A stretch of 64,000 nt of DNA from Deltaproteobacteria bacterium (lineage in GTDB: Bacteria > Myxococcota_A > Polyangia > Polyangiales > Houyiibacteriaceae): contig JAXMNT010000022.1 of assembly GCA_034670305.1 (NCBI GenBank), positions 1-64,000 of the forward strand, written 5' to 3'. How positions within the stretch are numbered: position 1 is the first letter of the stretch; every line of letters begins with the position of its first letter. Under the pieces are notes generated by a model that saw only the letters and a list, made by a program, of their open reading frames with translations, ran no database searches and was not told the origin of the DNA. Made by a program: the position numbers and the translations under genes. Below are positions 7,011 through 62,490 of the stretch, in pieces.

Positions 7011-7048
7011 CCATCCACTCCGCGAAGCGGCTTCGGTAGTCTCGGGAG

Positions 7049-9656: not shown

Positions 9657-9659
9657 CGC

Positions 9660-10721: not shown

Positions 10722-10749
10722 AACCTAAACAGACGCATCCGGGTGTCAA
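10722..10749 (-). promoter_or_regulatory. Putative sigma70-type promoter of hsp20
   Basis: TTGACA-N16-TAGGTT on the minus strand. Confidence 0.5.
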
Positions 10750-10825
10750 CGGACCCGCGAGAGGGACACGTGAAGAACATCACGCACCCGTCATGCGACG
10801 CAATCCAGGGCCATCCACCAGTTGC

Positions 10826-11527: not shown

Positions 11528-11576
11528 GCCCCATCGTACGCGAGGTGGGGGCCGGCCGTTACGCCTCTCGACAGCA

Positions 11577-12037
11577 CAGCGGTCGCGGTAGCGGTCGCGG
11601 AAGCGGGAGCGGAAGCGGAAGCGGAGGCGGAAGCGGAGGCGGAAGCGGAAGCGGAAGCGGAGGCGGAAGCGGAAGCGGAAGCGGAAGCGGAGGCGGTCGC
11701 GGTCGCGGTCGCGGAAGCCGGTTCTGTCGCTGGTGCTGGTTCTGTCGCTGTCTCTGTCGCTGTCGCTGTCTCTGTCGCTGTCGCTGCTTCTGTCGCTGTC
11801 GCTGTTTCTGTCGCTCGTGCTGTTTCTGTCGCTGGTGCTGACTCTGGTTCTGGTTCTGTCGCTGGTTCTGTCGCTGATTCTGCTTCTGATGCCGACTCTG
11901 GTTCTGCTTCTGGCGATGGTGCTGGTCAGGACCTGTTCTGGTTCTGGTGCTCCGGAGGCTTCGGCGGTCGGCTTCAATCGGGCACGGGCACGGGCACGGG
12001 CACGGGCACGGGCACGGGCACGGGCACGGGCACGGGG
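11577..12037. repeat. Intergenic hexamer-periodic tract B: (GCGGAA/GCGGTC)n, (CTGTCG/CTGGTT)n, then (GGGCAC)9
   Basis: Directly visible; nine perfect GGGCAC copies at 11980-12033. Confidence 0.95.
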
Positions 12038-12059
12038 CCCTTTCGTCTTTCGTTCGCCT

Positions 12060-15000: not shown

Positions 15001-15296
15001 CCTCCTGGGGCGTTGACCGTCTGCACGCTCGGCGAGGCGGTTTGCCTCGAGGAGGGGTCGCGGCGGACGCTCTCGGACTCGGCGTAGCCCGTGGGGGCCG
15101 GCGCGTACGAATCGTCCATGTCGGCCATCGGCTCGCTCGGCGCCATCTCGCCGCCGGAGACATCGCCGCCAGAGACCGCGCCGCCGGATTCTTGGGCACT
15201 CCAGCTGTTCGTCTCAGGGCTGGCGCCGCAGGCCAACAGGGTCAGGAGGAAGAAGGGCGTGAGCCCCCGCCGCGCGCGCTCGGAAGTGTCCAACAT
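12060..15296 (-). CDS. Lipoprotein with VIT, vWA, TPR-like and C-terminal DUF2135/YfaP-like domains
   Basis: Lipobox LLAC; VIT (FYNP..RTIEGTFRYPLP, DPALVE, FEARVFPI); MIDAS VDTSLS, GATDL, LLTDG; C-terminal MTWNTDNTDIDLWVTDP and DVTQGFGPE. Confidence 0.88.
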   Translation of the reverse strand: MLDTSERARRGLTPFFLLTLLACGASPETNSWSAQESGGAVSGGDVSGGEMAPSEPMADMDDSYAPAPTGYAESESVRRDPSSRQTASPSVQTVNAPGGGDGAGEDAGGAQAQAPEAQSWRRVSNQSRFATVSLGGGATLELRKVRVDVQVEGLRARTIVDHIFYNPHARTIEGTFRYPLPPEASISSYAMFLGSGTGTSPQQAPDFFGSQRQLQEQQQGFDQRIASIDPQNWGELRIGRIVKAERGREVYENVTRRQVDPALVEEVAPNTFEARVFPIQANGFHRVIVSYEQTLPRVGAELEYLFPLPNGTVESFDIDVRADARLTPRARYTGDVAEVASRTAHGSHHFSHRLAGSVQGGTYAFRFRAPAGPVEVLSGVHPERDERHFVARLHGDAQIPAAGGDTSAEHAVFLVDTSLSENADRFNIDVALLQQILERSPRIQRFNVITFDAGARWLSQRWMSNDEDGREGALDALREILLEGATDLGAALDALTHPPMRNARNTALDVFLLTDGALSWGERDVDTLIRRHQAASPWRSRFFAYRTGLGAENADLMRRLTSGDGAVFNCLSTASVPTCATAHHAAGFQIEELTVVGVGSAPAATHDVLVAGGAATLTRGGELLIAGKLTRGGTAEIRIRGKVGGETRTLRYPVTLQPQGTLASRAWAEIAIAHLLSTHDEDLESYAVALSQHYRVPSRATSFLVLETDAEYEQYSLENEQRQHPGSVGELARGIQQQRQSARTSWERLARAMRTAQEHHRLDDSVWSALSGIASTRPIDFVRGRQDIPAVRPGDTPRGYRRSMDTNPEHAEHYRAEGERRRAQGELGAAIRAVSSAVENAPSDAEIARLVGYTLSSWGARAEAAELFFGVLEKRPYEPQSYRDLATVLWTRRPSLTAMLYEAVLAGNWDGRFRGVVDIVREEYALFTRAWQRQAPRSPLAAFLADRQQALSLTVPEVDLRVTMTWNTDNTDIDLWVTDPRGDECYYGNRNIPSGGELLADVTQGFGPERFQARDAEEGVYTVRAKYYGNNGNRLLALTYVTLTVATHVGSAQEQVRHYVVPLRDRGDEAVVARIDMD

Positions 15297-15355
15297 GAGG
15301 ACCCAACGCTGCCACGGGACGGGGACTTACAGTTGTTCTCAACGACGCGCGTCGG

Positions 15356-15478
15356 CTATTCGTCTTTCCCTTCGAAGTAGCGGAGGGCGGAGTCGATGCC
15401 GGAGACGACGAGGGATCCGCCGATGGCCCCGCCGAGCGCGAGCGCCCAAGCGAGCAGCATGATTTGGTTGACGTCCAT
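15356..15478 (-). CDS. Small membrane protein, 40 aa (MDVNQIMLLAWALALGGAIGGSLVVSGIDSALRYFEGKDE)
   Basis: Single hydrophobic helix and GC3-rich codons; starts 5 nt after the stop of the upstream small ORF. Confidence 0.55.
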   Translation of the reverse strand: MDVNQIMLLAWALALGGAIGGSLVVSGIDSALRYFEGKDE

Positions 15479-15483
15479 GACGT

Positions 15484-15636
15484 TCAGCGTTCGTCCGGCT
15501 GCTGGTCGAGGCCGATGTCGCCTGCCTGCAGTTCGATGGGAAAATCGGCGTAGTCGAGCCGGAAGGAAGCGATCCAGCTGCGCCAGAGGGTGGTCAGCGT
15601 GGAGAGGCTTCGTGGGGTGGGGGTGGTTGTGGACAT
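15484..15636 (-). CDS. Small protein, 50 aa (MSTTTPTPRSLSTLTTLWRSWIASFRLDYADFPIELQAGDIGLDQQPDER)
   Basis: Strong SD (AAAGGAGG) 5 nt before the ATG; not in the ORF track. Confidence 0.6.
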   Translation of the reverse strand: MSTTTPTPRSLSTLTTLWRSWIASFRLDYADFPIELQAGDIGLDQQPDER

Positions 15637-15907
15637 GACGTCCTCCTTTCGTCCCGCCAAGGCGGGCGTTCGCAGGCTCGGGGCCTGCTCGGGATGACAC
15701 CATCCTGAGGATGATAACGCACCGCGTCAAGAACCGAGGTGCAGATTCTTGGAGGTGCGTCAAACGCGTACGTCCCACCTACATAGGGGCCAAGTGTAGT
15801 TTCGGAGACCTTCGGGTTGACTGGAATAACGCGCTGCGTTAGAAGAAATGACGCAACGACGCGCCGCGTTGGCGGATCGCGTCATTACGGATAGTCAGGA
15901 GTGCCCC

Positions 15908-16486
15908 ATGACCGAAATCGTTCGACGGTTGGATGAGACCCGCAGCCGAGTGCGCGCGGAAAGCGCCCAGTTCCTTGTCCGAACCCGGGAAGCCACCGCG
16001 CTTCTTGGGCAGGACGCCCGCGATGCGGGTCAGGTCTGGTGGAAGAGTGCCCAGCAGGCGTCGTTGGATCTGCGGGGCGGGCTGCAGGCGGAAGCGAGCG
16101 CCCTCGTCGGTGAACTCTCGGACGAGATCGCCGGTCTCACGGCGAAGATCACGGAACTCCGCCCGGCGCCCGCGGCTCCCACCGAGGGACTCGAGCCCAC
16201 CCGGCATCTTCAGCTGGAGCTGCTGGTGCGCCTGAAGCAGGTGCTGGCCACCCTCGACGGCCGCGTCCAGGCCCGGCTGGAGGGTCTGGCGTCTCAGACC
16301 CCGCTGCAGGCGGTGCCGAAAGCGCCGAAACCACCGTTCGCGGGGTACGACGACTGCACCGCCAAGGAGGTCGTGGCGGCGCTCGACGGGTTGAGCGCCA
16401 AGAAGCGCGCGGCGCTGGTGGCCTACGAACGCGCCCACAAGAGCCGCCGCACGGTGTTGCGGGCGGCGGAGCGACTGGCCGCCTGA
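15908..16486 (+). CDS. Helical protein, possibly phasin/lipid-droplet-associated
   Basis: SD CAGGAG; amphipathic helices; C-terminal P(F)AGYDD.TAKEVV..L..L.......L..YER.HK.R.TVL module of the kind seen in granule-associated proteins. Confidence 0.65.
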   Translation: MTEIVRRLDETRSRVRAESAQFLVRTREATALLGQDARDAGQVWWKSAQQASLDLRGGLQAEASALVGELSDEIAGLTAKITELRPAPAAPTEGLEPTRHLQLELLVRLKQVLATLDGRVQARLEGLASQTPLQAVPKAPKPPFAGYDDCTAKEVVAALDGLSAKKRAALVAYERAHKSRRTVLRAAERLAA

Positions 16487-16561
16487 GCCTGATTTCCACA
16501 GAGGTCGAGGGACGAGAGTCCAGTTGACCGGCCTCGGTGGGCGTGTTTCAACCGCACCCAC

Positions 16562-17320
16562 ATGAAGAACGTCCTGTTCGCCACCCTCGTGAACCTGCAG
16601 ACCGGGGGCGACAACCCCGCGGGCAGCCACGCGGCCCTCGATCCCTGGCAGCTCGTCGCCGACGCCAGCACCGTCGTGAAGTCGGTGATGATCATCCTCG
16701 TGCTGATGGGGGTGATCTGCGCCTTCATCATCGGGGCCAAGTCGGTCCGCCTCTTCCAGGCCATGAGCAAGAGCAAGGGTTTCCTCGGCGCCTTCTGGGG
16801 CGGCGAAGAAGGGCCCAACTGGTCGACCGAACGGCTCGAGGGGCTGTACTCCCAGGTGGGTCACTTCACCGGGTCTCCGATCGCCGCGGTCTACAAGGCG
16901 GGGTACGTCGAGCTCGCCCGGGTCATGGGCGCTGCGTCGCCCACCGACGCGGGCGACATCGACAACGTCGAACGTGCGCTCCGCCGCACCGCGACCGCGG
17001 AGATGACCCGCATCGAAGCGTTGCTTCCGTTTCTCGCGACCACGGGTGCAACGGCGCCGTTCATCGGTCTGTTCGGAACGGTGTGGGGCATCATGAACGC
17101 GTTCATCAACATCGGCGCGCAAGCGAGCGCGAGTCTCGACGTCGTCGCGCCGGGCATCGCCGAAGCGCTCATCGCGACCGCCATCGGCCTCGTCGCAGCG
17201 ATCCCCGCCGTCATGGCGTACAACTTCTTCCTCCGCCGCATCAAGGTGCTCGAGAGCGAGCTCGAGACGTTCTCGAACGACTACCTCAACATCGTGCGCC
17301 GGCACTTCTTGAGGAGCTGA
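16562..17320 (+). CDS. tolQ: TolQ/ExbB proton channel protein
   Basis: FLATTGATAPFIGLFGTVWGIM and VVAPGIAEALIATAIGLVAAIPAV. Confidence 0.95.
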   Translation: MKNVLFATLVNLQTGGDNPAGSHAALDPWQLVADASTVVKSVMIILVLMGVICAFIIGAKSVRLFQAMSKSKGFLGAFWGGEEGPNWSTERLEGLYSQVGHFTGSPIAAVYKAGYVELARVMGAASPTDAGDIDNVERALRRTATAEMTRIEALLPFLATTGATAPFIGLFGTVWGIMNAFINIGAQASASLDVVAPGIAEALIATAIGLVAAIPAVMAYNFFLRRIKVLESELETFSNDYLNIVRRHFLRS

Positions 17321-17324
17321 CCCC

Positions 17325-17774
17325 TTGGGTTTTTCGACCGGAGGGGGTGGCCGCGCGCCGCTCGGAGAGATCAACGTCACGCCGCTCGTGGACGTGATGC
17401 TGGTCTTGCTCATCATCTTCATGGTGGCCGCGCCGATGATGGCGACCGGCGTCGAGGTGGACCTGCCCCGCACGCGTGCCCCGCGCATGGAGCTCGACGA
17501 GGAGAAGTTGATCCTCACGATCGACGAGAACCGCGACGTCTGGCTCGGCGAGGAACAGGTCCCGCCCGAGCGTCTCGAAGAGGTGTTGCTCAACAACGCC
17601 CGGCTTCAGGAAGACGACGAGATCTACGTGCGGGCCGATGAATCGGTCCCGTATGGCTTCGTACTCCGGGTTTTCACGATCGTTCGCCAAGCTGGCATCG
17701 AGAAGCTGGGTCTCGTCACCGACCCCGCTGGTGGGGCGGCGCATCCGCCTCAAGGAACCGAACCCGAGCCGTGA
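17325..17774 (+). CDS. tolR: TolR/ExbD protein
   Basis: EINVTPLVDVMLVLLIIFMV, VDLP, RADESVPYG; TTG start. Confidence 0.93.
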   Translation: MGFSTGGGGRAPLGEINVTPLVDVMLVLLIIFMVAAPMMATGVEVDLPRTRAPRMELDEEKLILTIDENRDVWLGEEQVPPERLEEVLLNNARLQEDDEIYVRADESVPYGFVLRVFTIVRQAGIEKLGLVTDPAGGAAHPPQGTEPEP

Positions 17775-47664: not shown

Positions 47665-47856
47665 GTTCAGGGTTGGCCGTGCCCGACCATGTCCAGGCGT
47701 TCAGGTAGCACAAACCCAGGGCCCGTCGCGACCCGAGCGTTTGTTGTCCGAGGGACACTTTGACGGCCTTCGGCGCCCTCGACCGCACGTGGGCTCACCA
47801 CGCCTTTCAAAAACTGCCCCAAACCCGGCCACGTGTTAGAACGCTCGGCAAGACCC

Positions 47857-48630
47857 GTGTCGTCGCAACCCCAGCCAGAACCCGCGGACGAAGCCCCGCC
47901 CGAAGAGGACGCGGAGGGGACGGAAGACGCCGTCGACGAGGATCCGACCGCAGACGCGAAGTCGGTGAATCGATTCGGCAAAGCCGCGTCCAAACGATCA
48001 GCGGCCAGCGCGGAAGAGCGTGAGCGGGACAAGATCCTCGTCCGAGAAGTACAGGCGGGCGATCAGGTGGCGTTTCGGGCGTTGTTCGACCGGTACCACC
48101 GGCGGGCGTTCGCGGTGGCCTTCGGAGTCGTGAAGAACAAACAGGATGCGCTGGACGTCGTTCAAGACGCGTTCATCAAAGTCCACAAGCACATCGGCAA
48201 CTTTCAAGGCACTTCCAGCTTCTACACCTGGCTCTACCGTATCGTCATGAACCTCTCCATCGACCATGTTCGCCGTACCAAGAAGGGCCGAGACGTCGAC
48301 TACGACGATCGGATCCGACGGGACACGGAAGAACTGGCGGGCGATGGGTCGCTTTCGCCGACATTGCTCGGGTCCAACCCGCGCAAGACCGTGCTCCGCA
48401 AGGAGCTGGCCGAGGCCATCCAGAAGGCACTCGACGAACTTCCGGCCTACCACCGGGCGGTCATCATGCTCCGTGAGGTCGAGGGGCTGAGCTACGAGGA
48501 GATGGCCCGCGTGCTCGAAGTGCCGAAGGGCACCATCATGAGCCGGCTGTTTCACGCGCGCAGGAAGATGCAGGAGTCCCTCGAGGGCTACATCCAAGGA
48601 GAGCTCGAGATCCGGGGCGAAGAGCAATGA
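47857..48630 (+). CDS. ECF sigma factor with acidic N-terminal extension
   Basis: DALDVVQDAF, FYTWLYRI..N, LRE.EGLSYEE, GTIMSRLFHAR. Start uncertain (47833 or 47857). Confidence 0.93.
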   Translation: MSSQPQPEPADEAPPEEDAEGTEDAVDEDPTADAKSVNRFGKAASKRSAASAEERERDKILVREVQAGDQVAFRALFDRYHRRAFAVAFGVVKNKQDALDVVQDAFIKVHKHIGNFQGTSSFYTWLYRIVMNLSIDHVRRTKKGRDVDYDDRIRRDTEELAGDGSLSPTLLGSNPRKTVLRKELAEAIQKALDELPAYHRAVIMLREVEGLSYEEMARVLEVPKGTIMSRLFHARRKMQESLEGYIQGELEIRGEEQ

Positions 48631-49199
48631 CCACCGAGACCGAAGAACATCTGCCCGACGACACGTTGCAACGCTTCTTCGATGGCGAGGCCACCGAGGG
48701 CGAAGCCAACGATCTGCAGGCACAGCTCGAGACCGAACTCGAATTGGCCCGTCTCGAGCGTCTCGAGCGGCTCGGTGGGTTGCTGCGCGACCACGCCGAC
48801 ACGCTCGGTGCGGACATCGATTCGAACGCGCTCTTCGACGGGATCCAGGCGGGCATCGACAAGGCCAAGTCCGAAGGCCCCCGCCTCCGCCTGATCCAGG
48901 GCCAGCGCCGTCAGCGCGCCGGGGTGGCCGTAGCCCTCGCGGTTGCGATCGCCGCGGCCGTCGCCCTCGTCTTCTACTTGAAGCCGCCGGCCGACGACAA
49001 CCTCGCCGAAGCGCATCCCTTCGACACCACGCAGGAAGTCATCGTGCACGACCTGCACCCGGTCGAAGTGCATCCGCCCGGTGGTTCCGAGGTCGAAGAC
49101 GTCGATTTCGGTGGCAACACGGGCACCATCTTTCAGGTGCCAGGTGAACACGGGCAGCCGCTGGCCGTCGTATGGATCGACGAAGAGGCCCACCCATGA
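48627..49199 (+). CDS. Putative anti-sigma factor (single TM)
   Basis: Coupled to the sigma stop; LQRFFDGE (ZAS-like fold without Cys), one TM helix and a periplasmic tail. Confidence 0.8.
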   Translation: MTTETEEHLPDDTLQRFFDGEATEGEANDLQAQLETELELARLERLERLGGLLRDHADTLGADIDSNALFDGIQAGIDKAKSEGPRLRLIQGQRRQRAGVAVALAVAIAAAVALVFYLKPPADDNLAEAHPFDTTQEVIVHDLHPVEVHPPGGSEVEDVDFGGNTGTIFQVPGEHGQPLAVVWIDEEAHP

Positions 49200-49669
49200 T
49201 GAACCGCACCCACTCCCTTCTGCTCGCTGGCCTGGCCATCCTCTGTGGCGCCATCGCGCCTTCGGCGGGGCAGGCACAGCCGGGCACCATCCGCGGGGAA
49301 GTCCTCGTCGTGCTCGCCAAAGAGGCGCCGGGCGAGATCGACCCCGCGCTCGCGGACCTGAGCGCGCTGCGTCAGCCGCCATTCAACGCGTTCCGCTCCC
49401 TGTCCATCCTGGAGCGGCAGGCGGTGCGCCTCCGCCAGAACACCCCGCAGGACATCAACCTGCCGAACGGCCGCGTGCTTCGACTCGAGCTGCAGCGGGT
49501 GATGCCCGACGGGCGCCTTCGGGTGCGGGTCTCGATCAAACGGGAAGGCGAAGACGCCTACCTCCCGCTCCTGCAGGTCGTGACCGCGCCGGGCGATCCG
49601 TTCTTCGTGGCGGGCCAGTCTCACCAGGGCGGCACGCTGGTCATCGGCGTCCGACTCGGCTCCGCCTGA
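49196..49669 (+). CDS. Exported accessory protein of the ECF cluster
   Basis: Signal peptide (AQA); start overlaps the anti-sigma stop. Confidence 0.8.
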   Translation: MMNRTHSLLLAGLAILCGAIAPSAGQAQPGTIRGEVLVVLAKEAPGEIDPALADLSALRQPPFNAFRSLSILERQAVRLRQNTPQDINLPNGRVLRLELQRVMPDGRLRVRVSIKREGEDAYLPLLQVVTAPGDPFFVAGQSHQGGTLVIGVRLGSA

Positions 49670-49827
49670 CGGCTCGTTCACCCGAGGCGGTCGGACTGGA
49701 CCGTCGGGCCGGGCAGGGCGTACCGTCTCGGCATGTCGAGACGGCTGACCGAAATGCTGTTCGAAAGGCTGTGCGGGCGGCTTGAAACGCCGTGGGCGCG
49801 TGCGTCCGCTGGCGAACGGCTGGCCGG

Positions 49828-51027
49828 ATGAGCCAGGAACGGTTCATTCGATGTCCGCACTGCCGGTTGCCGCACGAGGCGACCGAATCGGTCTGTCCGA
49901 TGACCGGCAAGGCGATCGAGCTGCAGCCTCGCAAGAAGGACCCTGCCCCCCCGCCGAGCGACCGTCCGCGCTGGACGACGCCGGTGCCGGATCCGATGAC
50001 GCCGGTGGAGATGGAAGCGAGTCCGAGCGTCACCCGGATGTTCGGGCTCACCATCGACGGCAAGTACCGCCTCGACGAGCTCATCGGCCGAGGCGGCATG
50101 GGCGTCGTCTACAAGGGAGAACACGTCGGGCTCGGCCGCGAGGTCGCGGTGAAGGTCCTGCTTCGGGGCCACGAAGCCGGCAGCGCCGCCAAGAAACGGT
50201 TTCAGCGCGAAGCCCGCGCGGCCGGCACCATCGGCCACCCCAACATCGTTCAGGTCTTCGACCTCGGCACCCTGCCCGATGGGGTGCCCTACATCGTGAT
50301 GGAGTTGCTCGAGGGGGAGAACCTGGCCGATCGGCTCTCCATTCGAGGCGCGCTCGATCTCACCAAGTCCTGCCACATCGTGGCGCAGGCCCTGGCGGGA
50401 CTCGGCGCGGTGCACGAGTCGAACATCATCCACCGCGATCTGAAGCCGGACAACATCTTCCTCACGCCCGGCGGCGTGAAGCTCGTGGACTTCGGGATCT
50501 CGAAGACCATCGACGAGAACACCATGTCGCTCACCCGGACCGGGGTGGTGGTCGGCACGCCCTACTACCTCGCGCCCGAGCAGGCGCGCGGCCAGCGCGA
50601 CATCGACCACCGGGTCGATCTCTGGTCGGCCGGGGTGGTGCTCTACGAGTGCCTGACCGGGATGCTCCCGTTCCACGCGGGCAACTACAACGCGTTGCTC
50701 GCCAAGATCCTCTCGGTGCGGCCGGAGCCTCCGAGCAGCCTGCGGCCGGCGATCGGCGAGGGGCTCGACCGGGTGGTCATGAAGGCCCTCGCGTTCGCGC
50801 CGGAGGACCGGTACCAGAGCGCGCTCGAGATGAAGGAGGCGGTCGAGAAGGCCGCCCTCTCTCCACGCGGCGCCGGCGAGAGCCAAGTCGTCTCCGACGT
50901 GCTCGCCGAAGCCCGCAAACAAGGCCGCCTCGACGCCTCGACGGTGTCGCTCAAAGGCAAGCCGCCCGACGACCCGACCGAGGTCAGCGACTCCTTCATC
51001 CTCTCCGACCTCAAACCCGACGACTGA
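49828..51027 (+). CDS. Ser/Thr protein kinase with N-terminal zinc-ribbon-like motif
   Basis: CPHC..PH....CP; IGRGGMGVVY, VAVK, HRDLKPDN, DFG, GTPYYLAPEQ; no TM segment. Confidence 0.96.
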   Translation: MSQERFIRCPHCRLPHEATESVCPMTGKAIELQPRKKDPAPPPSDRPRWTTPVPDPMTPVEMEASPSVTRMFGLTIDGKYRLDELIGRGGMGVVYKGEHVGLGREVAVKVLLRGHEAGSAAKKRFQREARAAGTIGHPNIVQVFDLGTLPDGVPYIVMELLEGENLADRLSIRGALDLTKSCHIVAQALAGLGAVHESNIIHRDLKPDNIFLTPGGVKLVDFGISKTIDENTMSLTRTGVVVGTPYYLAPEQARGQRDIDHRVDLWSAGVVLYECLTGMLPFHAGNYNALLAKILSVRPEPPSSLRPAIGEGLDRVVMKALAFAPEDRYQSALEMKEAVEKAALSPRGAGESQVVSDVLAEARKQGRLDASTVSLKGKPPDDPTEVSDSFILSDLKPDD

Positions 51028-51142: not shown

Positions 51143-54100
51143 TCAGCGCGCGACCGAGACGTAGTCGAGACGGATGAGGATGTCGTCGATGCGGTCGAGG
51201 ACCAGGCCCTCGTCGTAGACGCCGCCGGCCGACTCTCGTGCGATGATCGCCGCTGGGATGAAGAGGGCGTACTGGCCGTAGAGGCCCCGTGCCGCGAGTT
51301 CGCTGCTCTCCCCGTTGGCGTAGTCGGGGGTCTCGAGGGTGCCGCGGTCGACGTTCACGAACGCTTGGATCCGCGCGCGTGTCTCGGAGCTGACGTCGAA
51401 TTCGGTGCCGAGTTCGCCACCGACGAGCTCTCCTTCGCCCGGCTCCCGGAAGAGGTTCCGGGTCGGGCGCGTGGAGGCCACCTGGTAGGGCTGCCCCTCG
51501 GGTGCGCTGCCACACCACTGGCTGAAGAAGGTGTTCCGTTTGAGCAGGTCCACCCGCACAAAGCTGGTGTCCGATCCGTTGATCACGTCTTCGCCGAGGA
51601 TCGATGCGTTGACCGACCAGATGCGTTCGGCGCAATCGGTCGCGGCGTAGATCGGCACCGCACCGGCATCGAAGCCGAACGCGCCGAGCGGGATCAGCTC
51701 GAACGGGATGCGCTGACCTTCCCAGTTGCCGGCTTCGTCGTAGACGGCGTGGTTCGGGTTTGCGAGGGCGAGCCGGAAACGTTCGATCGGCGTCAGCGGG
51801 TGGCTCTCGGCCGGCTGTCCGCTCTCGTCGCGCAAGCGCAGGACGTCGTCGCGGAGGCTCAGCACCGCTGAGAGATCACTGGGGCGCGAGCCACCGACGG
51901 TGCGGGTGGCGGCCGAGGTCCAAAGGCTCAGCAGGACCGCCCGCAGGTCGGCGGGCGTCGCTGCCTCGTAGATGTCCGTGCGTTCGGCAAGCGACTGCTG
52001 TTGTTCGTATTCGACCGCGCGGAGCGCCAAGTAGGTCGTCCGCCGTGCCAGCCGCATCTCGCGCACGAAGCTCGAGACGTTCTCGTCGATCCAGACGTCG
52101 CTGCCGGTGGGTCGGGCCGCGCTTCCGTCAAGCGCCATGAGGTAGTGGTGTCCCGTCAGCCAAGCGCGCTGCGCGTCGGCATGGAGGCCGTCGATGTTCG
52201 CGAATGCGCTTTGAAGATCGAACGCCGCCTGCTCGATGTCGAGGGCCGCCCGGTGCATGCCCACGAGTTCCGAGAGCGCGTCGTTGTAGCAGATCCAGAG
52301 ATCGCTGGCCTCCGCGAGCGCGGCCATCTGGTTCTCGTGGTTGAGTTGGGCCCCGTCGATCTCGCCCGTCAGCGAAGCGCTCGCGACTTGCGCAGCCGCC
52401 TGGACGCCGCCCGCGACACACGATGCGATCGCGAGCGCTGCGCCTGTGCCCGTTCCCCACGGCGTGTCTTTCACACCAGCGGCGCTGGCAGCGAGGCACT
52501 CCTTGGCCGCGCCTGCGACGGCGGCCGCGCTGTCGGCGGCGGCCCGTCCTCGGAACAGGCGCCCCATGTTCGCCTGGTGGTCGGAGCGGAGTCTGGTGGC
52601 CTCAGTGCCTGCCAATCTCTGCGTTGTGCAGGAATCCATCGCGATGTTGTAGGACTTGATGAACTCCGCGTGTGCGGCGCGTGCGGTCTGGAGCGCCCGC
52701 TCGGAGCTGACCACGTCGAGGTAGGCCTCGCCGATCGAGCCGGTCACACACGCTGGGATCTCGAGGGGTGAGCTCGGGTAGGGGACGTGTTCGCGCATCG
52801 AGGGATAGATCGCGCGGCACGTCTCGACCGCGGCGCTCCGAACCGCTGGGGGGACGACGTCCCCGATGCGCGTCGCCACCTGGGTGGGACGGGGATCCCT
52901 GCTGGGCTGGAGGTCCAGGGTGTCGGGTTCGAGAGGGAGCGGCTCGATGCTGTCGTCGCCGACGCAGAAGAGGCAGTTTCCTGTGTCGCACGCGGCGATG
53001 CGAACCACGTCCCAGCCATCGGTCGTATCCGAAGACGTCCCGATGTCGCGGACGCATCGTTCTGCGAAACTGCGCGCCGCACGATCCGTGAGGCCCACCA
53101 CATTGAAGGTGTTGTTGGTGAACGTGGCGACGCAGATGCGCCCGAGCACATCCGCTTCGGTCCAGCGCGTCCACCAGTCCTCCGGCTCGCCAGCGCACCG
53201 CGGGTTGATGGCATCGACCGCGCAGTTCTCGGACCGGAAGTTGGGGTCGTCGATGGGTGAGCCGGTGGTGGAGGAACCGCAGTAGTTGAAGAGCCGGACG
53301 TTGAACTGCTCCCGGACCTCGTCGAGCCATCGCTCGTGTTCGGCGGTGGCGACGTCGGCGCGGAAGGTCCGGTCGACTTCGCCGAGGAAACCAGCGCGCG
53401 CCGCATCGAGGGAGGACTCTGCCTGGCGCACCAAAGAAGGCGCCCACGCCGTGGAGTCCGGACCGGTGCCAAGGAGGAAGTCGCTCACCGCGGCGTAGCG
53501 CCCGCCGGGCCCAAAGCTGCCATCCGTGGCGCTGCCGTCGGCGAGGAAGTAGAGCGGCAGGTCGACGTCCTCGATGCCCAGCGGGTTGCCTCCGCTCTCA
53601 AGCCGGTAGGCGACGTCCTGGCTCTTCGAGAGAGCGGTGATTGCACGCGCTTCCGAGGCGCGGAAGTTGGTTTCCCAGCCAAGGGCCCCATCGGCGGCGC
53701 CCGCGGCGCGGTCGTAGAGGCCGTAGGCGAGGGCGCTCGCGAGCAGCACCCGAGGCATCACGGTCGCGAACTGGTCGAGGGCGGCGTCTGGTTCGAGTTC
53801 GAGGGCAGCCTCCTCCAAGACGGCCTGTTGCAGGTCGAGCTGGCTCGTGACCGTGTCGAGGATGGCCGCGGGCAGACTGTTCTGCTGCGGATCCCCGCGG
53901 CGAGGACTCACGCCGAGGACGGGCACGCGGTAGTCCTGCGTCTGCAATCCGCCTCCGAGCAGCTGCCCGAACGAGCCGGCCACCCGCGGGTGGAAGAGCA
54001 GATCCCACCCAGCGATGGATTGGTCGAGGCGCACGCCTGCTTCGACCATGGTCGGGTCGTCGGAGAAGACCGCGGCCATCTCCGCCTGAGAAGTCGCCTC

Positions 54101-56329
54101 CGAAGCGATCATGCCATGCAGCTCGAGGAAGCGGCCGATGCGGCGCAGCGCGAAGGCTCCGGCCTGAGCAACCTCTGGGGTCGGATCGTCGTCGTTGCGC
54201 AGCGTACGCAGACCATGCTGGATCGCCACCAAGAACCGACCCGGATCGACGCAGCGTCCGACGTCGAGGGCAGCGCCAGACGAACCGTTGCCGAGGAGGT
54301 GTTGGTAGCCGGAGCCGACCACGGACGGAGGCGCGCCGCGGAGGATGGCGAAGTCCGACAGACATTCGTCGATCAAGGCACGGACTCCAATGGTCTCCGT
54401 GTCCGTCAGGACGTCGGCCGCCAAGGCCCCACTTCGTGGGTGAACCGCACATTCGGCGTCGCGGGAGACCGTGCCAAGGCCCGAAGCAGGCATGTCGCCG
54501 ATCGACGCCAGACTCCCGGAGGGACGCGGCTCAGAGCATGCCGCGGTGAAGGCGCACGCCGGCTGGGTTTCTGGGATCCGGCACGAGCGTGTCCAACGCG
54601 CGGTGCCTACGAAGGGTGGCCGCGTGCCGCCCCCCTCGAGCCGCACATCCCCATCGACGGAGTACGTTCGTTCGGTGGTCGGGTCCAGGATGGTGCACCC
54701 CGTCCGTGCCCGCAGTTCGTCGCAGGTGTCGAACGCGACGTTCCTGACCGAGGTGCTGCTGCCGAGCGGGATGTCCACCGAGTAGTCGACGCTGCCCTCA
54801 CACGGCAGGTCGCGGGCCGGTCCGGGGATCGGGTCGCGGCCAATGGTGACGGGCACGAGGTAGTCTTCGCCCGCCATGACGGCGACCTGCACGATGGCGT
54901 TTCCGAAGGGCGTCTCTGCATGGATGTATCGCGATGCGTCCCCGTCCGCGGCGGCGAGCGCGGGCGTGATCCAGAAGCGGCTGTCGTTGAGCCCAAGCGC
55001 CGCGTACTTCGCGTCGGTGGCCGTGCCCGGGCTCTCCGAGACGAAGCAGTGTGCCCACTGGACTGGGGCATCGGTTCGCCAGAGGTCGAAGAAATCCGGC
55101 GTGAGCGAGCTGTCGCGAAGGACTTCGTCGAGCCGCTCCTCCCAGGGCAGGGTGGTGGCCTCGCGGGTCGCCTCGTCCGCGCTCAAGGTCGCATCCGAGC
55201 CGACGCTTGGAGCGGCGCCGCTGACATCGCCGGTGCGAGCGAGTTCGAGGGTCCAGCGTGCGGCAGGGCGGGTGTTGACGCCAAGCCCGACGAACTGCTG
55301 CGCGAGCTCGAGGCGCAGGGTGCGCGGCGTGTCGCGCAACTGCATGGTTGCGGTGACGATCTCGGACAGGACCTCGTAGTCGGCACCGAGGCCGAAGTCG
55401 GCGTCGAGGTAGGGCTGCACGGGGAACATCGCCGCGCCGCTCTGAAGCTCGCCATCGGCCGCCAGGGAGAACGTGCCGACGACCGCGCCGGCGCTTCCGA
55501 AGGCGCCACGGCGGTTGTCGATGGAGACGGTGCCGGCGCTGGGCGTGCCGTAGATCTCAACCGTGACTGGGAGCCGCACCGGGCCGACCGGTGCGGGCCC
55601 CGGATCGGCTGGGTCACCCAGTCCGCTCGCGGTGAGCACGGCGACACCGCGGTAGGTTCCGGAGAACTCGGCGCTGTCGATCGGGGTGTCGCCACGCCTG
55701 ATCGAGACGAAGGCCGCGTTGCCACCGCTGCTGAACACCCCGACCTCGCCCAGGCCCTCCGGGGAGCCCATGAAACGCACCGGGACAAGCGTGTCCCCAG
55801 CGGGCATCGCGTCGTAGACGCATTCGGTGGCGAAGGTCCCGTCCGGGCACTCGATCTCAGCGCCCTGGCGAGCGAGCAAACGCGCGCGGCCTCCGGCGCC
55901 CTGTGAGGTCAGATGGAGGACGCCCTCTCCGGTCGTCGCGTCGACACGGACGGACGTGTCGAGGGCTCGCAAATCCATACCGAGATCGCCCGCCGGCGGT
56001 GTGGGCACCAGGGCGGACTCTTCCATCCCGCGGCAGCGCCCGAACGAGTCGCAGCGCTCCCCGTCCCCGCAAGCGCTCTCGGCACCACACTCCGCGAGAC
56101 AAACCCCGAGGTCGCAGTACGTGCCGCACGGGCAGTGGTCGTCCGTGAGGCAGTCGCTCCGTTCGGCCACGAGGGCAGGGTCGACGGTGCATTGGATGGG
56201 GGCTGGCGCATCCGGGGACATCGTGTCGCCGGGGCCAGCGTCTTCCATGCCGCCCCCTCCGCCGCACGCGATGAGGGTGACGAAGGCGGTGGCGAGGTAG
56301 GACCGGATCGCGGCCAGAGGGAGATTCAT
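51143..56329 (-). CDS. 1728-aa Cys-rich lipoprotein with Tc-toxin-A-like C-terminal region
   Basis: Lipobox LIAC; Cys-rich module; helical stalk with a Gly/Ala hydrophobic hairpin; YLALRAVEYE; terminal GLYGQYALFI...IDDILIRLDYVS. The ORF is secure, the functional call is tentative. Confidence 0.75.
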   Translation of the reverse strand: MNLPLAAIRSYLATAFVTLIACGGGGGMEDAGPGDTMSPDAPAPIQCTVDPALVAERSDCLTDDHCPCGTYCDLGVCLAECGAESACGDGERCDSFGRCRGMEESALVPTPPAGDLGMDLRALDTSVRVDATTGEGVLHLTSQGAGGRARLLARQGAEIECPDGTFATECVYDAMPAGDTLVPVRFMGSPEGLGEVGVFSSGGNAAFVSIRRGDTPIDSAEFSGTYRGVAVLTASGLGDPADPGPAPVGPVRLPVTVEIYGTPSAGTVSIDNRRGAFGSAGAVVGTFSLAADGELQSGAAMFPVQPYLDADFGLGADYEVLSEIVTATMQLRDTPRTLRLELAQQFVGLGVNTRPAARWTLELARTGDVSGAAPSVGSDATLSADEATREATTLPWEERLDEVLRDSSLTPDFFDLWRTDAPVQWAHCFVSESPGTATDAKYAALGLNDSRFWITPALAAADGDASRYIHAETPFGNAIVQVAVMAGEDYLVPVTIGRDPIPGPARDLPCEGSVDYSVDIPLGSSTSVRNVAFDTCDELRARTGCTILDPTTERTYSVDGDVRLEGGGTRPPFVGTARWTRSCRIPETQPACAFTAACSEPRPSGSLASIGDMPASGLGTVSRDAECAVHPRSGALAADVLTDTETIGVRALIDECLSDFAILRGAPPSVVGSGYQHLLGNGSSGAALDVGRCVDPGRFLVAIQHGLRTLRNDDDPTPEVAQAGAFALRRIGRFLELHGMIASEATSQAEMAAVFSDDPTMVEAGVRLDQSIAGWDLLFHPRVAGSFGQLLGGGLQTQDYRVPVLGVSPRRGDPQQNSLPAAILDTVTSQLDLQQAVLEEAALELEPDAALDQFATVMPRVLLASALAYGLYDRAAGAADGALGWETNFRASEARAITALSKSQDVAYRLESGGNPLGIEDVDLPLYFLADGSATDGSFGPGGRYAAVSDFLLGTGPDSTAWAPSLVRQAESSLDAARAGFLGEVDRTFRADVATAEHERWLDEVREQFNVRLFNYCGSSTTGSPIDDPNFRSENCAVDAINPRCAGEPEDWWTRWTEADVLGRICVATFTNNTFNVVGLTDRAARSFAERCVRDIGTSSDTTDGWDVVRIAACDTGNCLFCVGDDSIEPLPLEPDTLDLQPSRDPRPTQVATRIGDVVPPAVRSAAVETCRAIYPSMREHVPYPSSPLEIPACVTGSIGEAYLDVVSSERALQTARAAHAEFIKSYNIAMDSCTTQRLAGTEATRLRSDHQANMGRLFRGRAAADSAAAVAGAAKECLAASAAGVKDTPWGTGTGAALAIASCVAGGVQAAAQVASASLTGEIDGAQLNHENQMAALAEASDLWICYNDALSELVGMHRAALDIEQAAFDLQSAFANIDGLHADAQRAWLTGHHYLMALDGSAARPTGSDVWIDENVSSFVREMRLARRTTYLALRAVEYEQQQSLAERTDIYEAATPADLRAVLLSLWTSAATRTVGGSRPSDLSAVLSLRDDVLRLRDESGQPAESHPLTPIERFRLALANPNHAVYDEAGNWEGQRIPFELIPLGAFGFDAGAVPIYAATDCAERIWSVNASILGEDVINGSDTSFVRVDLLKRNTFFSQWCGSAPEGQPYQVASTRPTRNLFREPGEGELVGGELGTEFDVSSETRARIQAFVNVDRGTLETPDYANGESSELAARGLYGQYALFIPAAIIARESAGGVYDEGLVLDRIDDILIRLDYVSVAR

Positions 56330-56503: not shown

Positions 56504-57229
56504 ATGGTGCGGGCGATGCGTCGATCCGATCCCGATGCCTTCGAGGTTCAGTCTTCGGGGCCCCCGAAGCTCACCCATGATCCGGCGGTCGTGGTGGATG
56601 TGCTGGCGCCGCTCGTGACCGAAGAACGCCTCGCGCGGCTTCAGGGCGTGGTGGCGGCGCGCAGCCGGGCGGTGACGATCGTGCTGGAGAACATCGACGA
56701 TCCGCACAACGCGTCCGCGGTGCTGCGCAGCGCGGATGCGTTCGGGCTGCAGGACGTGCACGTGGTCGGCGAGCGGAGCTTCGTCGCGTCGCGCCAGGTC
56801 GCCAAGGGCACCCACCGCTGGCTGGACGTGAAGCGGCACCTGACCGCCGCCGAATGTGCGGCGGAACTCCACGCCGCGGGGTACCAGATCCTCGTCGCTT
56901 CGATGGAGGGTCAGACCACGCCGGCCGAGGCCGCGCGTCTCGAGCGGGTGGCGTTCGTGTTCGGAAACGAACACCGCGGGCCGAGCCCCGAGATGCGGGA
57001 AGTCGCCGATGGCACCTACGGGATCCCGATGCGCGGCTTCGTCGAGAGCCTCAATGTCTCGGTCGCGGCGGCGATCACGCTGCACGTGGCCACGGTGGAT
57101 CGGCCGAGCGATCTGGACGCGGCTGCCCGAGAGCGGCTTTTGGCGCGGTTCCTGATGGCGTCGGTGAAAGACAGCGGCGCGGTGCTCGCGGACCAGATCG
57201 CCCAGCGCCAACAACGGGCCAGCTCATGA
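56504..57229 (+). CDS. trmH: TrmH/SpoU family tRNA 2'-O-methyltransferase
   Basis: VLENIDDPHNASAVLRSADAFG, VFGNEHRG, IPMRGFVESLNVSVA. Confidence 0.92.
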   Translation: MVRAMRRSDPDAFEVQSSGPPKLTHDPAVVVDVLAPLVTEERLARLQGVVAARSRAVTIVLENIDDPHNASAVLRSADAFGLQDVHVVGERSFVASRQVAKGTHRWLDVKRHLTAAECAAELHAAGYQILVASMEGQTTPAEAARLERVAFVFGNEHRGPSPEMREVADGTYGIPMRGFVESLNVSVAAAITLHVATVDRPSDLDAAARERLLARFLMASVKDSGAVLADQIAQRQQRASS

Positions 57230-57308: not shown

Positions 57309-59719
<2,411 letters not shown>

Positions 59720-59723
<4 letters not shown>

Positions 59724-61087
59724 GCGCAGTGGGTGGGACAGCACGAGCGGTGGTGTGTGCCGCAGCGCTTCTGTGCGGCGGACTCTGGAGCGCACCCGCA
59801 AAGGCGCAGAACGAGCCACCACCACCCGACAGCATCGCCGGCATCCACGTGCTGGAGCGCGCGGTGACCGAAGCAGCGCGGTCGTTGCTCGAAGGTGTGC
59901 CGCCGAGTGAGATCGTTCTGGAGTCGAGCTGGCCCTCCACCTCTACCGAACCGTCGGCGCTCGACGCGCGGCTTCGCACCGCGGTTCGGCGGGCGGCAAC
60001 CTCCGAGGGCGCCGGCGGTCCACCGCTGGTCGTGTCCGCGGAGGTCGTTCGTCGCGGCATCCGGGTCGAGTTGTCTCTCGCGACGCGGCTGCAGGATCGG
60101 AGCTGGGTCCGGCGTTTGTTCGTGGCGGCTTCTCCGGCCACGGTCCGCGTCGTCCAGGTGCCGCTCGATGCGTCGCTCCGCCGGTACGTCGCCGGCATCG
60201 CGCGGCTGACCAACGCCGGCGTGGTCGCGATCGCGACGCCGCTTCCCGCCCGCGGCTACCTCGCAGCGCAAGTCGTGAACCTCGATGGCGAAGGGCCGGA
60301 GGAGCTCGTCTTGCTGCGCGATGGAGACGTCGAGGTGTTTCGGGTCGCACCCGGCGCCCGGGCGGTCCCGAGGATGCGCCGCATCGCCCGGGTGCCTCTG
60401 CCGAGGTCTCCGCGTCCGGGCCACGGGACGCCCCGCCCCTTCGGTACGCTCTCGGTGGACACGGCGCCCGATGGGTCCGTGTCGTTGCTCGCGCGGGTGC
60501 GTTCCCGTGCTTCGGTGACGCGCATCCACATGCGCGACGGGGAGGTCGAGGCCACCGAGGCCACCGACCCGTGTCCTGCGCTCGGCCACCCCCTCGAAGA
60601 CGCGTGCGCGGTGCCGGTGGATGCGCGCGACTACTTCGCCTCCGAACTGATGGCCCGCGTGGGCCACTCCACCCCGCCCCGCGCGCCGACTTCGTTTCTA
60701 TCGCGCCGGCTCGCGCAGGTGGTGCGCGCCGACGGCACCACCGACCGGGTCGAGGCCGTCGTGACACCGCGGGGAAGGCTGGTCGTGCAAACGGGGACCC
60801 GCGCCGTCGGTGTGGCCGGCCATGGCGCGGCGTTCGGCATGGCCGACTTGGACGACGACGGCATGCTGGAGCTGCTCGCGAGTTCCGCGGCGCCGATCGG
60901 CGAACCGGATCGGCTGACGCTCTACCGGGTGACCGACGCGGGCGGCATGCGCACGCTCTGGCGCTCGGATCCGATCGCCGGTTCGGTGCTCGTGGGCACC
61001 CATGGGGACTTGGACGGCGACGGTCGGCCGGAACTCTTCGCGATCGAAGAGGGCGCCGAAGGCACCCAGCTGTGGTGGGTGCGCTGA
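59720..61087 (+). CDS. Exported protein with FG-GAP/VCBS-like repeats
   Basis: Signal peptide (AKA); NLDGEGPEEL, ADLDDDGMLEL, GDLDGDGRPEL. The ATG overlaps the mrcA stop. Confidence 0.82.
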
Positions 61088-62490
61088 TGGGGCAGACCGC
61101 GCGGCGGAACCCGCATCGATGGGTGTCTTCGTGTGCGACCGCCGCCGCTGTGCTGACAGCCGCGGCCGCGCTCGCGACGCCAGCACGGGGCGCGCTGCCG
61201 ACGACCTACGGCGGCCGGTTCACCGTGCCCTCGCTGACCGCCCTGCGGCTTCCGGATCCGCGCACCGCCTCGACGGCCCTCGAGTCGGCGCTCGCCCGCG
61301 CGGTCTACGACACGCTCTACACGAGCGACCTGTCCGGAGAGCCGACCCCCTCGCTCGCGGCGTACTTGCCGGAACGGGAAGAGAGCGTCGACGGCGCACC
61401 GCCACGGTTCCGGGTCCAGCTCCGCGGCGACGTGCGCCGACACGACCGGCGGACGTTGAGCGCGGACGACGTGGTGCAGTCGCTCCGCGCGGCTGCACGG
61501 TCGAGTGCCAAACCGTGGCTCGTGGGCCTTGGTCCTTCGCTGGCGGAGCCGGATGTCCGGGCGGTCGACCCGCTGACGCTCAGCTTCGCGTGGCGTGGGT
61601 CGGCGCGCGCACTGGCGGTGCGGCTCTCCGCGTTGCCGCTCTCGATCGTGCACCGCCGCGGCGGCACCGGCCCGTACCGAGCGCGACTGCGTTCGGGCGA
61701 ACTTCACCTCTCGCAGTTCCGTGCCGCCGCCCGGGGCGCGCCCTACGTACGCACGATCGTCGTGCGGCCGCCCGAGGATCGCGAACAAGAACTGCGCTCG
61801 TTCGAGCTCGAGCGGGCAGACGCGTCCTGGCGCGGCGCCGCGCTCTACGGACAGCCGAGGCGTCCGGTGCAGCGACTCGATTGGCCCGATGAGATCCCCG
61901 TGTTGCTCGTGCTCGGCCCTCGGGCCCAGCCGCACGCGGCGGCGCTCGACCGGGCGATCGATCGTCGGCGGCTCGCGCGCGTGGGCCTCGTGCCGACCGA
62001 CGCGTTGGCTCCGGGCGTGCCTACCGCTCGACTGACCGGCACCGCGCCGACCGGCCCGCTGCGGCTGGTCGTGCGTGCCGACGATCAGTTTCAGCGGGCG
62101 CTCGCGTCTGCGCTCGACGCCCGGTTCGACGAAGAGGGGTGGGATCTCGAGGTCGCCGCGCTCGAAGCCAGCCGGTATGCGCGCGCACTCTCGGCGGGAA
62201 CGTGGGACCTTCGTGTGGTGCAAGCGCCTCCAGCACTGCCGGACCCCGTCTCTCGTGTGGCGAGTGTGCTCGTGGCCGTCGGAGACGGTGGTGGCGCCGC
62301 CCGCGTCTTGAGTGAAGGCACCGCCGGGCTGGCGCACGCGGGCCGTTCGCTGCGCGCGATCCTTCTGGGTCGACGCGACTTGCAACTGCACGCGGTGGGC
62401 AGCTTGCGCGGCGCCTCGTTCGATGTGCTCGGGCGACTCCGGTTCGAGCGTCTGCACGTGGTGCTGGATCCCGAGGAACCGGAGGAGTGA
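61087..62490 (+). CDS. Degenerate family-5 solute-binding-like protein
   Basis: Signal peptide; YGG, VYDTLY, P.LA, LR..VR.HD.RTLSADDVV.SL, GTGPY, AIDR. Confidence 0.8.
   Translation: MGQTARRNPHRWVSSCATAAAVLTAAAALATPARGALPTTYGGRFTVPSLTALRLPDPRTASTALESALARAVYDTLYTSDLSGEPTPSLAAYLPEREESVDGAPPRFRVQLRGDVRRHDRRTLSADDVVQSLRAAARSSAKPWLVGLGPSLAEPDVRAVDPLTLSFAWRGSARALAVRLSALPLSIVHRRGGTGPYRARLRSGELHLSQFRAAARGAPYVRTIVVRPPEDREQELRSFELERADASWRGAALYGQPRRPVQRLDWPDEIPVLLVLGPRAQPHAAALDRAIDRRRLARVGLVPTDALAPGVPTARLTGTAPTGPLRLVVRADDQFQRALASALDARFDEEGWDLEVAALEASRYARALSAGTWDLRVVQAPPALPDPVSRVASVLVAVGDGGGAARVLSEGTAGLAHAGRSLRAILLGRRDLQLHAVGSLRGASFDVLGRLRFERLHVVLDPEEPEE

Follow-up and report, generated by a model that had tools for sequence, protein, structure and literature searches.

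Does the giant gene at positions 51143-56329 of a stretch of Polyangiales DNA encode a relative of the TcA subunit of Tc toxins, and what could such a protein do with no TcB or TcC gene beside it? The stretch, referred to here as the window, comprises the first 64,000 nucleotides of contig JAXMNT010000022.1 from a Deltaproteobacteria bacterium (assembly GCA_034670305.1), whose genome assembly is 7.9 Mb long and 96% complete. The gene is an uninterrupted open reading frame (ORF) of 1728 codons plus stop on the minus strand, and an initial interpretation from the letters alone (the sequence-only reading) proposed that its product is a stand-alone lipoprotein with a TcA-like stalk. Tc toxins are known from pathogens of insects and humans, in which they act as soluble A5-B-C syringes. 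We consider it probable, with appreciable doubt, that the product is an exported, lipid-anchored, disulfide-rich protein whose C-terminal ~800 residues represent a compact and strongly diverged homolog of the TcA translocon core. This TcA-like reading is largely supported by the fold of predicted models, by language-model features and by the gene context of relatives, and not by sequence profiles.

A TcA-like fold in the C-terminal region

Two AlphaFold2 (AF2) models were calculated from family alignments, one for residues 630-1728 (predicted local distance difference test score, pLDDT, 82.2; predicted template modeling score, pTM, 0.61) and one for residues 1-700 (pLDDT 80.7, pTM 0.77). The numbering of the C-terminal model starts at residue 630, and its positions 568-655 and 667-773 are the two arms of a long helical hairpin. 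When this model is compared with the PDB by Foldseek, all 20 of the best matches are TcA subunits (E = 3.5e-6 to 9.3e-4, probability 0.99-1.00), including TcdA1, TcdA4, XptA1/2, YenTcA and TcaA-TcaB, and the first match to any other protein has a probability of 0.33. The TcA rows obtained with VIA-align (Z = 13.4-15.1, values that are common for helical models) place model positions 286-1097 onto residues 2008-2516 of TcdA1, which cover both channel and TcB-binding domain. An isolated TcB-binding fragment (6l7i_A; TcdA1 2327-2516) also aligns with model positions 853-1097 (Z = 9.3, root mean square deviation (rmsd) 3.9 A over 148 aligned residues of 179), and Foldseek gives a TMt of 0.50. A search that does not depend on Foldseek recovers 6rwb_A (Z = 13.4, 367 residues aligned), 6rwa_A (Z = 12.8) and 6ogd_B (Z = 10.6), and among its matches only the TcA representatives span the hairpin and the beta domain together.

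A protein-language-model search (ESM-Atlas) with residues 1190-1728 gives a similar picture. Clusters of PF18276 (TcA_TcB_BD) make up 20 of the 30 named matches, with scores of 0.94 and 0.93 and with 213 and 207 of 256 features in common. The best 20 Foldseek matches of the monomer model, the VIA-align superpositions and the language-model features thus agree on a TcA-like C-terminal ~800 residues, as the sequence-only reading had proposed, insofar as this is the fold of a predicted model. Within it, a TcB-binding domain fold is predicted for residues 1480-1728 and a TcA-type helical hairpin with a conserved hydrophobic tip for residues 1197-1402. The two long helices that had been expected to flank the hairpin are present in the model as arms of residues 1197-1284 and 1296-1402, which are separated by a loop of residues 1285-1295.

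Hydrophobic tip and paired cysteines of the hairpin

The tip of the predicted hairpin coincides with the most hydrophobic point of the whole C-terminal region. In the family-mean Kyte-Doolittle profile (19-residue window, 49 sequences, C-terminal 1099 residues), the global maximum falls at residue 1300 (1.28, compared to a mean of -0.14 and a standard deviation of 0.42), and the fraction of charged residues reaches its minimum (0.03) at the same position. The hydrophobic character of the hairpin, a point on which the sequence-only reading had staked its interpretation, is therefore conserved across the family. This maximum agrees with the channel tip of TcA subunits, which is highly hydrophobic according to PMC6795518. 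The tip is rich in Ala and Gly (residues 1291-1320, window 52370-52459) and is not strongly apolar, and its loop varies in length and sequence among homologs.

Two pairs of cysteines are arranged symmetrically about the center of this loop. Cys1278 and Cys1304 lie 13 residues to either side of it and occur together in 22 of 27 homologs, with both missing from four others. Cys1234 and Cys1347 lie 57 and 56 residues from the center and are present in all 27. Because the pairs are symmetric about the loop and are either invariant or covary, we infer that two disulfide staples (Cys1278-Cys1304 and Cys1234-Cys1347) may cross the hairpin. Such staples would suit a hairpin that is exported.

Motifs and conservation

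All of the motifs quoted in the sequence-only reading are found in the ORF where it had placed them. GGNPLG (residues 913-918) and DLPLYF (residues 923-928) occupy window positions 53546-53593 and belong to an invariant motif of the helical domain, G-x-N-P-L-G-I ... D-L-P-L-Y-F, in 27 homologs. The motif RLARRTTYLALRAVEYE corresponds to residues 1426-1442 (window 52004-52054), and the protein ends with GLYGQYALFIP...LDRIDDILIRLDYVS. Residues N915, G918, P925, L926, Y927, A1428, R1430, L1434, E1440, Y1441, R1720 and D1722 do not vary among 27 diverse homologs, which indicates that the quoted motifs did not arise by chance. The C-terminal beta domain (mean identity to the query 0.46) and the post-hairpin helices (0.43) are the best-conserved regions, and most others range from 0.14 to 0.28. 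The protein contains 39 Cys residues in total, ten of them within residues 47-99, and most are kept in 21-27 of the 27 homologs. C1017, C1036, C1045 and C1194, which belong to an insert between the helical domain and the hairpin, are each present in every one of them.

A widespread family with a lipoprotein signal

A word-indexed search with the 1728-residue protein finds, at E <= 0.001, another 64 proteins, and 62 of these score at E <= 1e-100. They are mostly full-length (about 1550-2050 residues), and every source name given for them is 'hypothetical protein'; Persicimonas caeni and Lujinxingia vulgaris are among the named records. An exhaustive phmmer search with residues 630-1728 extends the set to 549 cluster representatives at E <= 0.001 (351 at E <= 1e-30). 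In species-representative genomes, relatives are encoded in 110 of 138 candidate stretches, and 80 loci were retained for neighborhood analysis. Nearly all of these have Myxococcota-type titles (Bradymonadales, Polyangiales, Sandaracinaceae, Haliangium, Myxococcaceae, Archangium, Kofleriaceae and older 'Deltaproteobacteria' labels), with at most three copies per chromosome. Among 401 evenly sampled genomes of the phylum, at least 48 have a match to the family profile at E <= 1e-10, and in at least 32 of them the match extends over the C-terminal part. The carriers of the family bear the labels Myxococcota or Bradymonadales, and these groups include social and predatory bacteria. Our literature searches found no paper on TcA-like lipoproteins in either group.

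The proposal that the protein is a lipoprotein is upheld by a LIAC lipobox with Cys22 and by a strict test for a signal peptide plus lipobox, which 45 of 63 family proteins, including the query, pass. Most of the 18 that fail are visibly truncated or have misassigned starts at the N-terminus.

The other 16 of the 48 matching genomes are matched mainly or only through the N-terminal lipoprotein signal and Cys-rich module. The frames concerned are about 760-1700 residues long, apart from two short fragments at contig ends (examples are G176:C1, G013:C1, G043, G311 and G371). The BC-linked L096, described below, is one of these matches. On the basis of these matches, the Cys-rich module seems to be a common 'head' carried by several families of giant proteins.

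BC genes and relatives in A-BC loci

The gene is indeed stand-alone, and this holds for all 80 family loci, none of which has a BC-like (TcB-TcC-fusion-like) gene in its flanks. The accompanying statement that TcB and TcC are missing is correct for the window, since SpvB and TcdB_toxin_midN matches occur only on other contigs, but it does not extend to the genome. Three giant BC-type genes with SpvB, FG-GAP, TcdB_toxin_midN and RHS domains are found on contigs C3, C27 and C5. On C27, a gene for a 2245-residue giant protein (L093:1281-8015, plus strand) is followed by the BC gene (8991-17345, plus strand). The same arrangement recurs on C5, where a 2129-residue giant (L094:10812-17198, minus strand) precedes the BC gene (3330-10763, minus strand). 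The BC gene of C3 (L092:9649-17844, plus strand) has no large gene directly upstream.

The L093 and L094 giants have no Pfam match and are homologous to each other (E = 6e-25). Both have a tip in which a Gly/Ala loop is bracketed by cysteines and a TcA-like end, ..IEDVQLMLKYRYWT. Their mutual homology, this tip and this end suggest that they are probably cryptic A components. The similarity of L093 to the 1728-residue family is weak (hhalign probabilities of 59% and 22%), L094 has none, and a comparison of canonical TcA C-termini with L093 by hhalign is not significant.

Closer relatives occur beside BC genes in other Myxococcota genomes. A Pfam-blank protein of 2138 residues (L095) matches residues 1188-1725 (BLASTP E = 4e-65, 31% identity) and 692-1021 (E = 1e-17) of the query and conserves the motif region of the helical domain. 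Its gene lies upstream and on the same strand of a gene with SpvB, FG-GAP, TcdB_toxin_midN and RHS domains, and one 457-residue ORF intervenes. In a further genome, a lipoprotein of 1269 residues (L097) that begins with a lipoprotein-type signal aligns with family columns 1370-1730 (hhalign probability 99.5%, E = 1.3e-22), and its gene also precedes an SpvB/TcdB_midN/RHS gene. A third protein (L096:3570-8312, 1581 residues) is encoded directly upstream of an SpvB gene and shares only the N-terminal Cys-rich module (hhalign probability 96.7%), which sits behind a lipobox-like ..SSCGG stretch. The relations of L095, L097 and L096, taken together with their linkage to BC genes, indicate that the family is one branch within a larger group of A-like proteins of the phylum that lack Pfam matches, and that some of these are the A genes of A-BC loci.

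The representation of these components in the 401 sampled genomes is uneven. SpvB-type genes are present in 131 genomes, whereas canonical TcA_TcB_BD is present in 22, in frames of 2400-5069 residues (for example L099, L103 and L104). Most SpvB genes are consequently without a Pfam-recognizable A partner in the same genome, and surveys based on domains could miss A components. Of the 32 genomes that carry the family, 15 have SpvB, compared to 116 of the 369 others, a mild enrichment that is phylogenetically confounded. The 17 family genomes in which SpvB was not found include several that are 96-99% complete, and 13 of these 17 have RHS-core genes.

In genome G006, a 2953-residue RHS-core frame ends about 5 kb from a family gene in convergent orientation (L098, G006:C3:73000-92999). 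We rejected it as a functional partner because an integrase-like remnant lies between the two genes and the locus, with 59% G+C (lower-GC DNA), looks like an insertion.

Proposed mechanism and alternative explanations

If the protein is a diverged TcA-like translocon, its action can be pictured as follows. It would be exported by Sec and the lipoprotein pathway, with the N-terminal Cys-rich module, Ig (immunoglobulin)-like sandwich and small beta barrel taking the place of the receptor-binding domains of TcA. Lipid-anchored copies in the envelope of the producer could assemble around their hairpins, possibly as a pentamer by analogy with TcA, while the N-terminal beta domains bind the surface of a target. 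The hydrophobic tips would then be pushed into the foreign membrane, and the outcome might be a lytic pore alone or a conduit for cargo encoded elsewhere. Oligomerization, membrane insertion, surface exposure and the nature of the target (prey or competitor cells) are all hypothetical elements of this scheme.

Several results weigh against a TcA relationship. No family in Pfam or NCBIfam matches the 1728-residue protein at E <= 1, and a TcA_TcB_BD domain, which the sequence-only reading led us to look for, was not recovered: neither PF18276 nor VRP1 matches the protein or a six-frame scan of the genome at E <= 1, and PF18276 is not among the 16 Pfam families matched by 27 family members. Stray matches in these members, such as Somatomedin_B and PAN_1, occur in one member each and give the family no name. 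Searches of PDB sequences with phmmer and with a family hidden Markov model (HMM) return no TcA, and phmmer with the 1728-residue protein returns nothing at E <= 1. Comparison of the family with the C-termini of four canonical Myxococcota TcA proteins by hhalign gives probabilities of only 5.9% and 1.0%, although the TcA alignment is shallow and this negative is consequently weak. On the structural side, other helix bundles tie with TcA on Z score (TTYH 14.5-15.6, maquettes about 15, McpS 13-14), and Hbl, ClyA and MakA reach Z = 10-12 on helices alone. The N-terminal 700 residues match only generic Ig-like and barrel folds (Z = 8-10), and no row specific to a TcA shell, neuraminidase-like or receptor-binding domain (RBD) was obtained for the N-terminal model, an absence of rows that does not exclude a relationship. 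The hydropathy of the tip, 1.28 in a 19-residue window, does not reach the level of a classical transmembrane helix, and an E or D is found near it in many homologs. A tblastn search (E <= 1e-5) of the flanks of the 80 family loci, 1.23 Mb in total, finds no BC-like gene. Lastly, a lipoprotein signal and 39 cysteines set the protein apart from TcA subunits, and we know of no precedent for a lipid anchor combined with many disulfides in the TcAs described so far.

Other explanations were also weighed. The protein could be the A component of a split holotoxin: its C-terminal domain would dock a cocoon of the TcB/TcC type, or another RHS/YD cocoon, whose gene lies elsewhere in the genome, and the protein would inject this cargo instead of working alone. 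This has a modest chance of being correct. In its favor, the C-terminal domain is the most conserved part of the protein and has a predicted TcB-binding fold, A genes of A-BC loci are found among the relatives of the family, the C3 gene among the three SpvB+FG-GAP+TcdB_midN+RHS giants of this genome lacks a large gene directly upstream, and RHS-core genes occur in 13 of the 17 family genomes without SpvB. Yet the other two BC genes of the genome already have their own upstream giants, the flanks of the 80 family loci are devoid of BC-like genes, and the association with SpvB, which was not found in 17 of 32 family genomes (several of them 96-99% complete), is mild and confounded. A more elaborate version, which we regard as improbable, is that the family constitutes surface-anchored, contact-fired injectors of predatory Myxococcota and Bradymonadia that are loaded in trans with orphan RHS/YD cocoon proteins docked on the TcB-binding-like crown. 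The orphan cocoons would include BC fusions without an adjacent A gene and teneurin-like lipoproteins, for which no delivery machinery is known (PMC13018210). The stapled hairpin would be fired into prey membranes by a Tc-type syringe that is tethered to the outer membrane of the producer rather than being released by lysis.

Two further explanations remain. With a chance that we put lower again, the protein may be a nontoxic envelope or surface component, such as an adhesin, an outer-membrane-exchange or contact factor or a scaffold, that has kept a TcA-like fold but lost the ability to pierce foreign membranes. Its lipid anchor, its many disulfides and the Ig-like and barrel domains of its N-terminus are typical of surface proteins, the neighboring genes are housekeeping genes, regulators recur beside family genes (LuxR-type in about 10 loci, ECF (extracytoplasmic function) sigma factors in 6), and no immunity-like or cargo gene lies alongside; a passive adhesin is nonetheless hard to reconcile with a hydrophobic, charge-free tip in 49 sequences and with a TcB-binding-like domain that is the most constrained part of the protein. 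An alpha-pore-forming toxin of the ClyA/Hbl/MakA type, or an unrelated helical bundle, with a resemblance to TcA that is convergent, is very unlikely. The insignificant hhalign comparison to canonical TcA is compatible with such a protein, as are helix-only VIA-align matches to ClyA (4phq, Z = 9.8), Hbl-B (2nrj, Z = 11.8), HblL1 (7nmq, Z = 11.3) and MakA (6ezv, Z = 10.3), but these are limited to helices (model positions 370-776), have Z scores that are common for helical bundles and leave the beta domain uncovered. High Foldseek probabilities are confined to TcA, the ESM features point to TcA_TcB_BD, the relatives are found in A-BC operons, and neither the 1728-residue protein nor 27 homologs have a ClyA or Hbl match in Pfam. 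The diverged TcA-like translocon core is the reading that we retain.

Domain organization

The features of the ORF are collected in Table 1. The beta-rich domains noticed in the sequence-only reading appear in the AF2 models at residues 115-367 and again as the C-terminal beta domain (1480-1728). The same reading recognized a Cys-rich EGF/Dickkopf-like module near the N-terminus. A Cys-rich module does exist here, and each of its ten cysteines is kept in 21-23 of 27 homologs, but the EGF/Dickkopf label finds no significant Pfam support: Dickkopf_N matches one of 27 homologs (E = 0.22), and the 1728-residue protein itself has no Pfam family at E <= 1.

Table 1. Predicted parts of the giant protein and their positions in the window
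Feature	Residues	Window position	Strand	Basis or remark
Whole ORF, 1728 amino acids plus stop		51143..56329	(-)	GC3 0.84
Lipoprotein signal peptide, lipobox LIAC with Cys22; Gly-rich linker after it	1-22	56264..56329	(-)	Translation, lipobox test
Cys-rich module, ten Cys, no Pfam name	47-99	56033..56191	(-)	pLDDT about 89-94
Ig-like/PapD-like beta sandwich	115-216	55682..55987	(-)	AF2 model, VIA-align, Foldseek
Closed up-and-down beta barrel	218-367	55229..55678	(-)	AF2 model, VIA-align
Mixed alpha/beta region with conserved Cys	386-629	54443..55174	(-)	Least conserved part of protein
Alpha-helical domain, candidate shell	630-1016	53282..54442	(-)	AF2 helices
Cys-rich insert with short strands, between helical domain and hairpin	1017-1196	52742..53281	(-)	AF2 model, alignment
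Long antiparallel helical hairpin	1197-1402	52124..52741	(-)	AF2 helices, TcA alignment
Tip of the hairpin, with a variable loop (1285-1295) and a hydrophobic stretch rich in Ala and Gly that runs to 1320	1285-1320	52370..52477	(-)	Hydropathy, Cys1278/Cys1304 bracket
Post-hairpin helices, conserved MRLARR..YLAVRAVEYE.Q motif	1403-1479	51893..52123	(-)	AF2 model, mean identity 0.43
C-terminal beta domain, most conserved part	1480-1728	51146..51892	(-)	Predicted fold of the TcdA1 TcB-binding domain

The folds predicted upstream of the hairpin are generic. The beta sandwich resembles PapD-type chaperones and SbsC domains (VIA-align Z about 8-9, with Foldseek matches to PapD), and the barrel resembles OmpW (Z = 10.1, rmsd 4.0, 133 residues aligned) as well as avidin- and Cap15-like barrels (Z = 8-9). 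No specific match to residues 386-629 appears in the Foldseek and VIA-align lists, which were filled by the two beta domains. The candidate shell (residues 630-1016) matches only generic helical repeats in VIA-align (Z about 8-9).

Gene context

The giant gene is by itself on the minus strand and is flanked by a Ser/Thr kinase gene (49792-51027, plus strand) and a SpoU methylase gene (56504-57229, plus strand), and it is thus isolated and opposite to its neighbors, just as the sequence-only reading had described it. That reading also judged the gene to be slightly less biased in its G+C content at third codon positions (GC3), which the computed values contradict: its GC3 (0.84) falls inside the range of the adjoining genes (0.79-0.90), and it is therefore no outlier. 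Farther away in the window are genes that encode an ECF sigma factor, UvrD, a class A penicillin-binding protein and a histidine kinase. The ECF sigma factor gene (47833-48630, plus strand) lies upstream of a Pfam-blank 190-residue ORF (48627-49199) that overlaps its stop codon and possibly encodes an anti-sigma factor. Together with the Ser/Thr kinase gene, these two genes (47833-51027, plus strand) run convergently toward the giant gene's 3' end. At window positions 59134-62490, long ORFs with similar GC3 (0.75-0.80) overlap on both strands and have only weak Pfam matches that are below the cut-off (FG-GAP_3, SBP_bac_5).

The genome encodes one paralog, a 1460-residue protein with its own lipobox on contig C34 (L091:8686-13065, plus strand), which is 36% identical to the 1728-residue protein over residues 718-1727. 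Its gene is located amid at least four others whose products start with lipoprotein-type signals.

No partner gene is universally conserved among the 677 flanking ORFs of the 80 family loci. The neighbors that recur are regulators, namely LuxR/GerE-type genes in about 10 loci, ECF sigma factor genes in 6 and NtrC-type activators. In ten loci of the Myxococcaceae/Archangium type (L046, L050, L053, L055, L058, L060, L065, L074, L079 and L080), a gene for a Pfam-blank lipoprotein of ~680 residues lies directly upstream on the same strand (for example L058:6480-8516, plus strand). A relationship of this lipoprotein to the family was ruled out (hhalign probability 0.1%). An ECF sigma factor gene lies directly downstream of the family gene in four of these ten loci and in six family loci in all.

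Comparison with known systems

If the favored reading is true, then the Tc translocon extends to a large unannotated clade of proteins that are exported by Sec, lipid-anchored, stapled by disulfides and encoded without adjacent cargo genes. If these proteins also pierce membranes, they are candidates for contact-dependent killing of prey and could serve as a compact scaffold for translocons. The source genome and others also have A-like genes without Pfam matches that lie upstream of BC fusions. Neither 'Myxococc' nor 'Deltaproteobacteria' occurs in the main text of PMC7861908, whose supplements may list such loci.

The family protein has the same order of C-terminal modules as TcA (PDB 4o9y, 6rw6, 5lki, 6rwb, 6ogd; PF18276), with a helical domain, a hairpin with a hydrophobic tip and a beta domain. 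As in TcA, for which this pattern is described in PMC6795518, conservation is strongest in the pore and C-terminal region. The C-terminal D-D-I-L-L-R-L-D-Y of the family also resembles the ends of canonical Myxococcota proteins, ..EDVVLVVSYTT and ..EDVLLVIDYGL. In contrast, the family protein is shorter (1728 residues, compared to canonical frames of 2400-5069 in the phylum), has no PF18276 or VRP1 match and gives no significant HMM-HMM signal. Its hairpin has two conserved Cys pairs, and its N-terminus consists of a predicted Ig-like sandwich and beta barrel instead of recognizable RBD or neuraminidase-like domains. There is no adjacent TcB/TcC gene in 80 family loci. Described TcAs are synthesized in the cytoplasm without a signal peptide. 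Their release occurs by lysis (PMC10847048).

The BC-linked A-like giants are Pfam-blank where scanned (L093, L094, L095, L096 and L097), as is the family protein, but they are encoded upstream of an SpvB/TcdB_midN/RHS gene and the 1728-residue family is not. L095 shares the helical-domain motif region, hairpin and C-terminal domain with it, L097 shares the C-terminal 360 columns and L096 shares the Cys-rich module. L095 differs in having no Cys aligned opposite Cys1278 or Cys1304. What ClyA, Hbl and MakA have in common with the family protein is a long bundle of helices that carries a hydrophobic element at one of its ends (Z = 9.8-11.8 over about 190-217 residues). This match involves only helices, has Z scores that are common for helical bundles, is without Pfam, Foldseek or ESM support and includes no counterpart of the C-terminal beta domain.

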